Of a stretch of 64,000 nucleotides of DNA, positions 54,516 to 54,640 are shown piece by piece. The DNA lies in NCBI GenBank assembly GCA_036404475.1, contig DASWZL010000107.1, forward strand, positions 2,066 to 66,065, read 5' to 3'. Source of the DNA: Thermoplasmata archaeon. Lineage in GTDB: Archaea > Thermoplasmatota > Thermoplasmata > Lutacidiplasmatales > UBA184. Position 1 is the first letter of the stretch. Every line of letters begins with the position of its first letter. The notes beneath the pieces were generated by a model that saw only the letters and a program-made list of their open reading frames with translations, ran no database searches and was not told the DNA's origin. Position numbers and translations under genes: made by a program.

Positions 54516-54640
54516 CTTCATGAAGGGAGCGCGCGTTCGATGACCGACCGCGAGGAGCGCGTGAGCCGGGCGGAGGTCAATGGGATGGCACACCCCGTTT
54601 GGAAACCCACAGGTTTCGTAAGGGGCCAACAGACCTACCC
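54516..54640 (+). repeat. MTD-element copy A (palindrome, micro-ORF, MTDREER ORF start, GAAAC-N6-GTTTC)
   Basis: Homologous to 58239-58346, 55555-58 region (55555-55658) and 62021-62100. See findings. Confidence 0.6.
54602..54617. promoter_or_regulatory. GAAAC-N6-GTTTC palindrome (GAAACCcacaGGTTTC)
   Basis: Perfect 6-bp arms, read directly. About 170 nt upstream of the membrane-protein ATG at 54788. Confidence 0.35.

Follow-up and report, generated by a model that had tools for sequence, protein, structure and literature searches.

We describe a short, asymmetric, multicopy DNA element of soil and peat Thermoplasmata, and propose that it is probably the recombination junction of mobile gene cassettes held in chromosomal arrays. 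The arrays, the fixed polarity of the element within them, the mosaic junctions, the cassettes shared between loci and the different cargo beside the cox1 gene of a relative are direct observations. From these we infer that an enzyme acting site-specifically, and not homologous recombination over the repeat, carries out the exchange, as well as what kind of enzyme this might be.

Copies of the element in the window

The window, the stretch of 64,000 nucleotides of DNA analysed here, is archaeal; it contains a TBP gene with an internal repeat at 38.3-38.7 kb and has a GC content of about 0.69. GC3 is about 0.88 up to the gene at 51956 and falls to about 0.75 from there on; within the segment 51956-63121 it lies at 0.69-0.86, against 0.82-0.92 elsewhere in the window. 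This accessory segment, the cassette array (51956..63121, unstranded; Pfam, GC3 and tRNA calls), is bordered by cox1 (49105-51882, minus strand) on one side and by a tRNA-Leu gene (63405-63487, minus strand) on the other.

A repeat search grouped sequences at 53165, 54525, 55557, 58248 and 62042 in the direct-repeat families D1/D2, all on the plus strand. The degenerate core GATGRCCGACCNNGAGGA has three exact matches in the window, namely the copies A, B and E; with up to three mismatches it has 11 matches where 4.3 are expected, a number reached by none of 100 shuffles. When an nhmmer profile iterated over about 190 family members was run on the whole 64 kb, it returned only four matches, A, B, E and C, and none in the 52 kb of core genome, so that the element is restricted to the array. 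The repeat search and the iterated nhmmer search therefore confirm a sequence-only reading of this DNA, which had described a multicopy, intergenic, same-strand family found only in the accessory segment (the low-GC3 segment at 52-63 kb). Of the five copies listed there, A, B and E are strong and C is weak; D is doubtful, and at best a decayed copy.

Copy A has an exact core and occupies 54526..54566 on the plus strand, with the T of TCGATG at 54537 (nhmmer 54519-54565, E 7.5e-14). Its upstream box, TTCATGAA, was read directly at 54517..54524 (plus strand, -20..-13 from that T), and its Box 2 (GGAAACCCAC plus GGTTTC) was placed at 54601..54618 (plus strand) from aligned copies. The element of copy B lies at 58249..58289 on the plus strand with the T at 58260 (nhmmer 58242-58289, E 2.9e-14); it has the same upstream box, TTCATGAA, at 58240-58247 (plus strand), and starts 12 nt past the stop of a hydrolase gene at 58227. 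Copy E (62043..62083, plus strand, T at 62054; nhmmer 62038-62083, E 2.3e-6) has the upstream box TTGATGGA at 62034-62041 (plus strand) and carries the variant GATGGCC; it does sit between convergent genes, as had been noted. The decayed element of copy C, AACGTTACCGACCGCGAGGAACG, at 55558..55598 (plus strand; nhmmer 55574-55597, E 0.004-0.04), is 71% identical to A in register and is followed by a Box 2, GGAAGCCACC, at 55633-55642 (plus strand). The gap-free alignment of A with C in apparent codons, noted earlier, is explained by the Box 2 common to both. The strongly decayed and doubtful copy D (53165..53215, plus strand; 65% identity in the repeat search) occupies the expected position of a joint between the epimerase and cupin genes; nhmmer gave it an E of 8.6 with the first profile, and the iterated profile did not detect it.

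Along the array, the joints and the cargo after each are a decayed joint of a second repeat type, D7, at about 52.09 kb (epimerase), the decayed joint D at about 53.18 kb (cupin and a minus-strand SDR), A at 54537 (membrane protein), the decayed joint C at 55569 (C2H2 zinc finger and two alpha/beta hydrolases), B at 58260 (MFS), a second decayed D7-type joint at about 60.03 kb (cyclase-TPR), and E at 62054 (minus-strand hydrolase, then the tRNA-Leu). All 22 of the 22 contigs with an identical membrane protein, which belong to the window's own species, have the same neighbours and an identical array; no ongoing shuffling is therefore visible, and this counts against the cassette reading.

The membrane protein of the A-C cassette (206 aa, 54788-55408) belongs to no Pfam family and has about 966 homologues across Thermoplasmata, including lineages from acid mine drainage. 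Homologues 81-88% identical to it lie in unrelated genomic contexts that lack the element, and the gene therefore also exists outside the cassette system.

Anatomy of the element

An alignment of 54 exact-core copies from different loci places the conserved block at about 41 nt, from -11 to +29 relative to the T of TCGATG (gCGCGCGCGtTCGATGACCGACCGCGAGGAGCGCGCGGGg), which replaces the unit of 70-110 nt given earlier. These copies were seeded by the exact core pattern, so the invariance of the core is partly ascertained; the analyses of flanks, polarity, spacing and junctions are unaffected by this seeding. A weaker upstream box with the consensus TT.AT.rA is found at -20..-13 in about half of the 54 copies. 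About 40 nt downstream, a second box, GGAAACCYACC, occurs in about 15%, and GAAACC is present downstream in 15 of 101 copies. Both arms of the element consist of alternating (CG)n stretches (54526-54535 and 54558-54563 in the window, and their equivalents), which could potentially form Z-DNA.

There is also a second core type, GGCCGATGAC(C/A)(T/G)GACCGCAATCAGCGCGCG, and cores of type 1 and type 2 often occur at a distance of 67 nt from each other, joined by a conserved filler. This 67-nt tandem unit, made up of a type-1 core, gcgcgggNgccgcgNccgcgcaGGCTTCATGAAGGacgcgcgcgg and a type-2 core, is seen in the collected loci (L numbers) L066 at about 979, L072 at about 1806, L099 at about 593, L125 at about 5888, L135 at about 8532 and about 9541, L139 at about 5023 and L027 at 977-1044. 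It looks like a minimal cassette devoid of an ORF and consisting of the two cassette ends only. A structured insert of about 55 nt, TCGGGAAGGCTCGCCCTTCCCGAGCGGACGAATCCGAGAGATTCATCCAGAGAC, interrupts the core between TCGA and GACCGCGAGG, near the inferred joint, at L026 (about 2781-2840 and about 7140-7190) and at L135 near 8532.

Arrays of one polarity in other genomes

When GTDB species genomes were scanned for the exact pattern, the family appeared in five Thermoplasmata MAGs from soil or peat, often with several copies per 8-kb locus, and a metagenome scan found the core pattern, among the matches listed, in at least dozens of contigs from peat, bog and soil. An iterated profile search of the collected loci raised the family to at least about 192 copies in Thermoplasmata MAGs and peat or soil metagenomes. 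The copies form arrays, with at least seven in 6.4 kb of L027 and six each in L144, L139 and L056. Adjacent copies lie on the same strand in 86 of 86 pairs, at a median spacing of 851 nt (IQR 548-1401).

Genes outside the window were called by a crude GC3 heuristic. By these calls, 37 of 66 intervals between copies hold one gene, and the cargo genes lie on the element's strand in 49 cases and on the opposite strand in 28. The upstream gene is co-oriented with the element in 45 of 68 copies, its stop at a median of 51 nt from the element, and the downstream gene is co-oriented in 33 of 68; 12 of the 68 copies are antisense to both neighbours. These figures rule out a role as a promoter or 5' UTR. 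The polarity of the arrays is independent of the orientation of the genes, and in this the family resembles cassette arrays, where site polarity belongs to the array as a whole.

The commonest cargo in a set of 150 array and neighbouring proteins comprises methyltransferases, GNAT acetyltransferases, MFS transporters, alpha/beta hydrolases, ferritin-like proteins, DUF1801 proteins, SDRs and cupins; the cargo of the window, with its low GC3, fits this pattern. In L178, a relative whose cox1 is 75% identical, the elements lie on the same side of cox1 and likewise point away from it, and the cargo is wholly different from that of the window (glyoxalase, hemerythrin, YdjM, TetR, SDR and DUF1801). 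The cox1-proximal position is a conserved hotspot (L178 1-10000, with two elements, compared with 51.9-63 kb in the window). In another genome an array begins directly after the TBP gene (L091 1-258 and L098 2880-3335, compared with window 38327-38782), and the chromosomal position of the arrays thus differs between lineages.

Matches to the core outside archaea were set aside. Most of them, in Gaiellaceae and other actinobacteria, represent an unrelated conserved coding motif, ...GSMADQEEL: the motif ARFGRSLFGSSAAAGSMADQEEL of a protein of Gaiellaceae and Thermoleophilia mimics the core (L002, L006-L008, L010, L011, L016, L017 and others). The remaining non-archaeal matches lack the conserved flanks of the family and are irrelevant, and all four of four matches on viral contigs, also without the flanks, look like chance matches within genes.

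Exchange of flanks at the element

At least 13 pairs of copies from different loci are 80-100% identical on one flank and unrelated on the other, with the switch falling inside the 41-nt block. Copies L091_475 and L098_1786, for example, are 99% identical upstream and unrelated downstream, while L085_425 and L140_11878 are 100% identical downstream and unrelated upstream. In an all-against-all BLAST comparison the ends of the HSPs cluster at -25..-5 or +22..+32 in both partners. Whole cassettes are shared in the same manner: L067 7385-8042 and L072 114-772 show 92% identity over the full element-to-element interval and unrelated sequence beyond it, and L027 1048-1691 and L056 10457-11097 likewise share a cassette between unrelated flanks. 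These observations bear on the earlier suggestion that the copies are relics of a duplicated module, which comes closest to what we see, as gene modules do share junctions; simple duplication does not hold, and what is seen is exchange of modules at the repeat.

The crossover was narrowed from partners of differing core type. Two such pairs, L067_8011 with L072_739 and L066_1869 with L047_9531, have a common left flank that runs through the GC arm to -2, and a half-site in L056 starts at +9. Together these place the joint between -2 and +9, that is, at TTCGATGAC, with G to its left and C to its right.

Circular contigs of cassettes were not found among the collected sequences (about 1 Mb of related DNA), and 123 joined-flank queries of this database, which holds only about 1 Mb, returned no empty-site (presence/absence) alleles; the single empty-site candidate is an undetected type-2 copy. 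With so little related sequence, these negative results, and those on recombinases below, are of limited power.

Tests of coding, RNA structure and symmetry

ORFs from the shared ATG range from 2 to 229 aa (median 32) and are conserved in residues 1-9 only. The ATG is absent in 8 of 119 copies, and diverged copies carry +1 and other non-triplet indels as well as 55-nt insertions. The nine conserved residues are accounted for by the conserved nucleotides of the element, and variable ORF length, missing ATGs and frame-breaking indels together refute a family of small-peptide genes, the first of the explanations offered in the sequence-only reading.

RNAfold draws a 9-bp GC stem around the core, and a k-turn or hairpin (GC stem, UUC bulge, GA.AG pairs) is attractive by eye; it has neither covariation nor an excess of folding behind it, and was rejected. 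Across the 54 ungapped sequences 85.2% of cells pair; shuffled sequences give 84.8%, and 123 of 500 shuffles are at least as good as the real alignment. There are 4 pairs with changes on both sides where 2.1 would be expected, a count of 4 being attained by 51 of 500 shuffles, and non-consensus cells are paired in about 30% of cases, whatever the register. There is no fold excess as RNA or DNA on either strand (z-scores -0.8 to +0.96), and single-stranded DNA from -110 to +35 of A, B and E gives no stable hairpin signal on either strand (z -0.03 to +0.87). Searches of Rfam at the gathering and E<=10 thresholds returned tRNAs only and no match to the element. A leader-peptide or cis-regulatory RNA, the second explanation offered, is thus not supported by these data, nor by the orientation of the neighbouring genes given above.

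The best dyad symmetry is 8/11, which 28% of consensus shuffles reach, and within 200 nt there is no inverted partner of the core, reverse-complement k-mers not being enriched. The lack of terminal inverted repeats remarked on earlier is borne out by both results. Lacking significant dyad symmetry, the element is unlike a classical tyrosine or serine recombinase core, which counts against the cassette reading. A tyrosine-recombinase core of the form CGCGKTC-GATGACC-GACCGCG was tried and is no better than shuffles. An origin from the neighbouring tRNA-Leu was likewise rejected: by eye only TTCGA and GCGAG(A/G)AGC are common to the two, and the repeat search shows no repeat. Nor is this a CRISPR array, given the median spacing of 851 nt with genes between copies and a 67-nt tandem 'spacer' that is conserved, not variable.

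Search for a recombinase

No recombinase gene was found in the window's island by Pfam, and none among 10 array-proximal genes at array starts. A phmmer search of 392 kb of family loci found no integrase; with a single Thermoplasmata integrase as query, its sensitivity is limited. The 25 commonest Pfam families of the 150 neighbouring proteins include no recombinase, TnpA or RAYT. A trans-acting enzyme would therefore be required. The absence of a recombinase, of circles and of presence/absence alleles from these searches we count against the cassette reading.

One IS110-family transposase (DEDD_Tnp_IS110 plus Transposase_20), the only one in the 392 kb, lies inside an array at L057 9034-10131. 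After it come about 470 nt of non-coding DNA with decayed elements, a stretch common to L001 and L139 and also present in L085, although L085 and L057 represent a single region of one genome. Beside the gene, nothing with guide-like complementarity to the element was identified. Given the precedent of IS1111-attC elements, we treat this IS110 gene as a possible lead in the search for the recombinase, and as a lead only.

A model for the arrays and its alternatives

We propose that the 41-bp asymmetric site of fixed polarity would be the place at which modules, mostly of one gene, join and exchange. A cassette would run from TTCGATGACCGACCGCGAGGAGCGCGCGGGG through its cargo to (TTCATGAAGG)GCGCGCGCG, in the order core, tail, cargo, upstream box and GC arm. 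Circularisation of such a cassette would restore one complete site, with ...GCGCGCGCG joined to TTCGATGACC... at the circle junction. The most likely mechanism would be conservative site-specific recombination between direct repeats by a recombinase encoded elsewhere in the genome; with direct asymmetric sites, a cassette could come out as a circle and go into a different site, leaving the polarity of the array intact. By kind the family would be a gene-cassette array, integron-like in function. More tentatively, we suggest that it could be a previously undescribed archaeal analogue of the integron, with a 41-bp asymmetric duplex site and a recombinase acting in trans, be it a hijacked XerA, an RNA-guided enzyme of IS110 type or a new one.

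The exchange could instead be a by-product of homologous recombination, the repeat itself being conserved as a regulatory or insulating signal: a transcription-factor or chromatin-protein site, a terminator, a promoter module or a UTR RNA such as a k-turn-like hairpin. Mosaics could accumulate in this way over evolutionary time across an otherwise conserved 41-nt repeat, and it is true that the 41 nt are strongly conserved across species-level MAGs, that 66% of copies lie a median of 51 nt past the stop of a co-oriented gene, that the TTCATGAA box and the ATG look like a promoter and a start, and that a GC stem around a GAUGA...GAGGA loop can be drawn for the consensus. We nevertheless consider a signal of this kind unlikely, since covariation, folding and Rfam searches were all negative, the downstream gene is co-oriented in only 49% of cases with 12 of 68 copies antisense to both neighbours, and a polarity kept in 86 of 86 pairs is not expected of a signal placed gene by gene. 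A non-autonomous selfish repeat (REP, MITE or PATE-like), moved by a strand-specific transposase in trans (IS200/IS605-RAYT or IS110) and oriented by a replication-strand bias, is in our judgement improbable. Short, multicopy and intergenic, the element has the look of one; tandem and split copies exist, single-stranded DNA transposition could produce uniform orientation over 10-kb scales, and the L057 array contains its IS110-family gene. Simple insertion, however, does not yield homology on one side of the element, and the copies cluster, the 52 kb of core genome being free of them. Terminal inverted repeats, a hairpin and an inverted partner are lacking, the 123 joined-flank queries gave no empty sites in the database of about 1 Mb, and neither TnpA nor RAYT is among the 25 commonest Pfam families of the 150 neighbouring proteins.

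That the copies are ordinary integron attC sites in clusters that have no integrase (CALINs), recombined by IntI as folded single strands, is very improbable in spite of the same-polarity, mostly single-gene arrays and their typical cassette cargo. No R''/R' pair, no inverted partner within 200 nt and no excess of single-stranded folding is present; the GTT at the joint is variable, position -1 being T in 32, G in 14 and C in 6 of the 54 copies; the conserved asymmetric central block lies mostly 3' of the joint, the opposite of attC; and no integrase was found in the island, at array starts or by phmmer in 392 kb. Integrons and CALINs have been reported in archaeal MAGs, but the text of that paper makes no mention of Thermoplasmata (PMC9668308). 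Genes for small proteins or leader peptides starting MTDREER are scarcely credible. A, B and E do share an in-frame ATG with the first 7-9 codons conserved; against this, conservation ends at residue 9 in ORFs of 2-229 aa, the ATG is missing from 8 of 119 copies, the frame-breaking indels and 55-nt insertions described above occur in diverged ones, and many such ORFs overlap real genes in another frame.

Relation to known systems

Of the routes by which prokaryotes accumulate and reshuffle single adaptive genes, cassette platforms are understood best, and until recently they were, to our knowledge, known only as bacterial integrons with attC and IntI. The arrays described here resemble integron arrays and CALINs in having mostly one-gene modules joined by a repeat of fixed polarity, with adaptive or accessory cargo in either orientation; as in integron arrays, cassettes are common to unrelated arrays, a fixed chromosomal position holds variable cargo, and there are mini-cassettes without an ORF. 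Sedentary chromosomal integrons offer a further likeness, in that the repeat is highly similar within a lineage; the VCRs of Vibrio are near-identical attC repeats of such integrons. An attC site is an imperfect palindrome of 57-141 nt in which R'' (RYYYAAC) pairs with R' (GTTRRRY), and integrons other than CALINs encode IntI, a tyrosine recombinase, where the array starts. The element, in contrast, lacks an R''/L''-L'/R' palindrome, extrahelical-base architecture and a folding signal, and the arrays further differ from integrons in that the conserved block is mainly 3' of the joint, no IntI was found, and the hosts are Thermoplasmata.

Target sites of IS110/IS1111 elements, including IS1111-attC elements, are similar in being asymmetric: those recognised by the bridge-RNA recombinases of this group measure about 20-40 bp. 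A gene of the IS110 family does lie in one array; the difference is that it is the only such gene in 392 kb and that no complementary guide was identified. Xer modules (the pdif modules of Acinetobacter plasmids and IMEX at dif) are also alike, in that short conserved sites flank small gene modules, and a recombinase acting in trans from elsewhere on the chromosome, as in those modules, would explain why none is found in or beside the arrays. Sites of the dif type, however, are 11-6-11 inverted repeats, with arms of roughly 11 nt about a spacer of 6-8 nt (PMC8371274), whereas the element lacks significant dyad symmetry (best 8/11), and pdif sites alternate in orientation whereas copies of the element never do. 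With REP/BIME and other palindromic repeats derived from IS200/IS605 the element shares its short, GC-rich, extragenic and multicopy nature and its frequent position just past stop codons, and such repeats can serve as substrates for rearrangement. It differs from them in having no palindrome and no RAYT or TnpA seen nearby, and in being strictly clustered, co-oriented and placed at module boundaries. In the literature searched, no relevant occurrence of the core sequence was found.

Should the cassette reading be correct, the same architecture would have arisen with a different site chemistry in abundant uncultured archaea of peat and soil. The 41 nt would then provide a marker for arrays and their pool of accessory genes in metagenomes, and would suggest the existence of a recombinase that acts on a long asymmetric target, which would interest students of archaeal genome evolution and might serve as a tool. 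If the repeat is a regulatory signal instead, it would still define the accessory regions of these genomes.

A second repeat family in the arrays

A second intergenic repeat family, D7, of about 95 nt (CCCCCCTTACACAACCCCgTCGTTAGAAATCGGTGCGAGCGGTCGAC...GAACGGGCCCGTT), is also present. In the window, D7-type modules lie at 52003..52083 (plus strand), marking the decayed joint at about 52.09 kb, and at 59933..60013 (plus strand), between the MFS and cyclase genes and marking the decayed joint at about 60.03 kb. Elsewhere D7 occurs at L004 7055-7158, L018 1211-1311, L140 11050-11096 (L140/L078), L051 4408-4463, L084 2796-2880 and L139 8218-8275. In L140 the D7 module leads directly into the main element, and D7 may represent a long module at the 3' end of certain cassettes. 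Within D7, GCGGTCGAC is complementary to a portion of the core.
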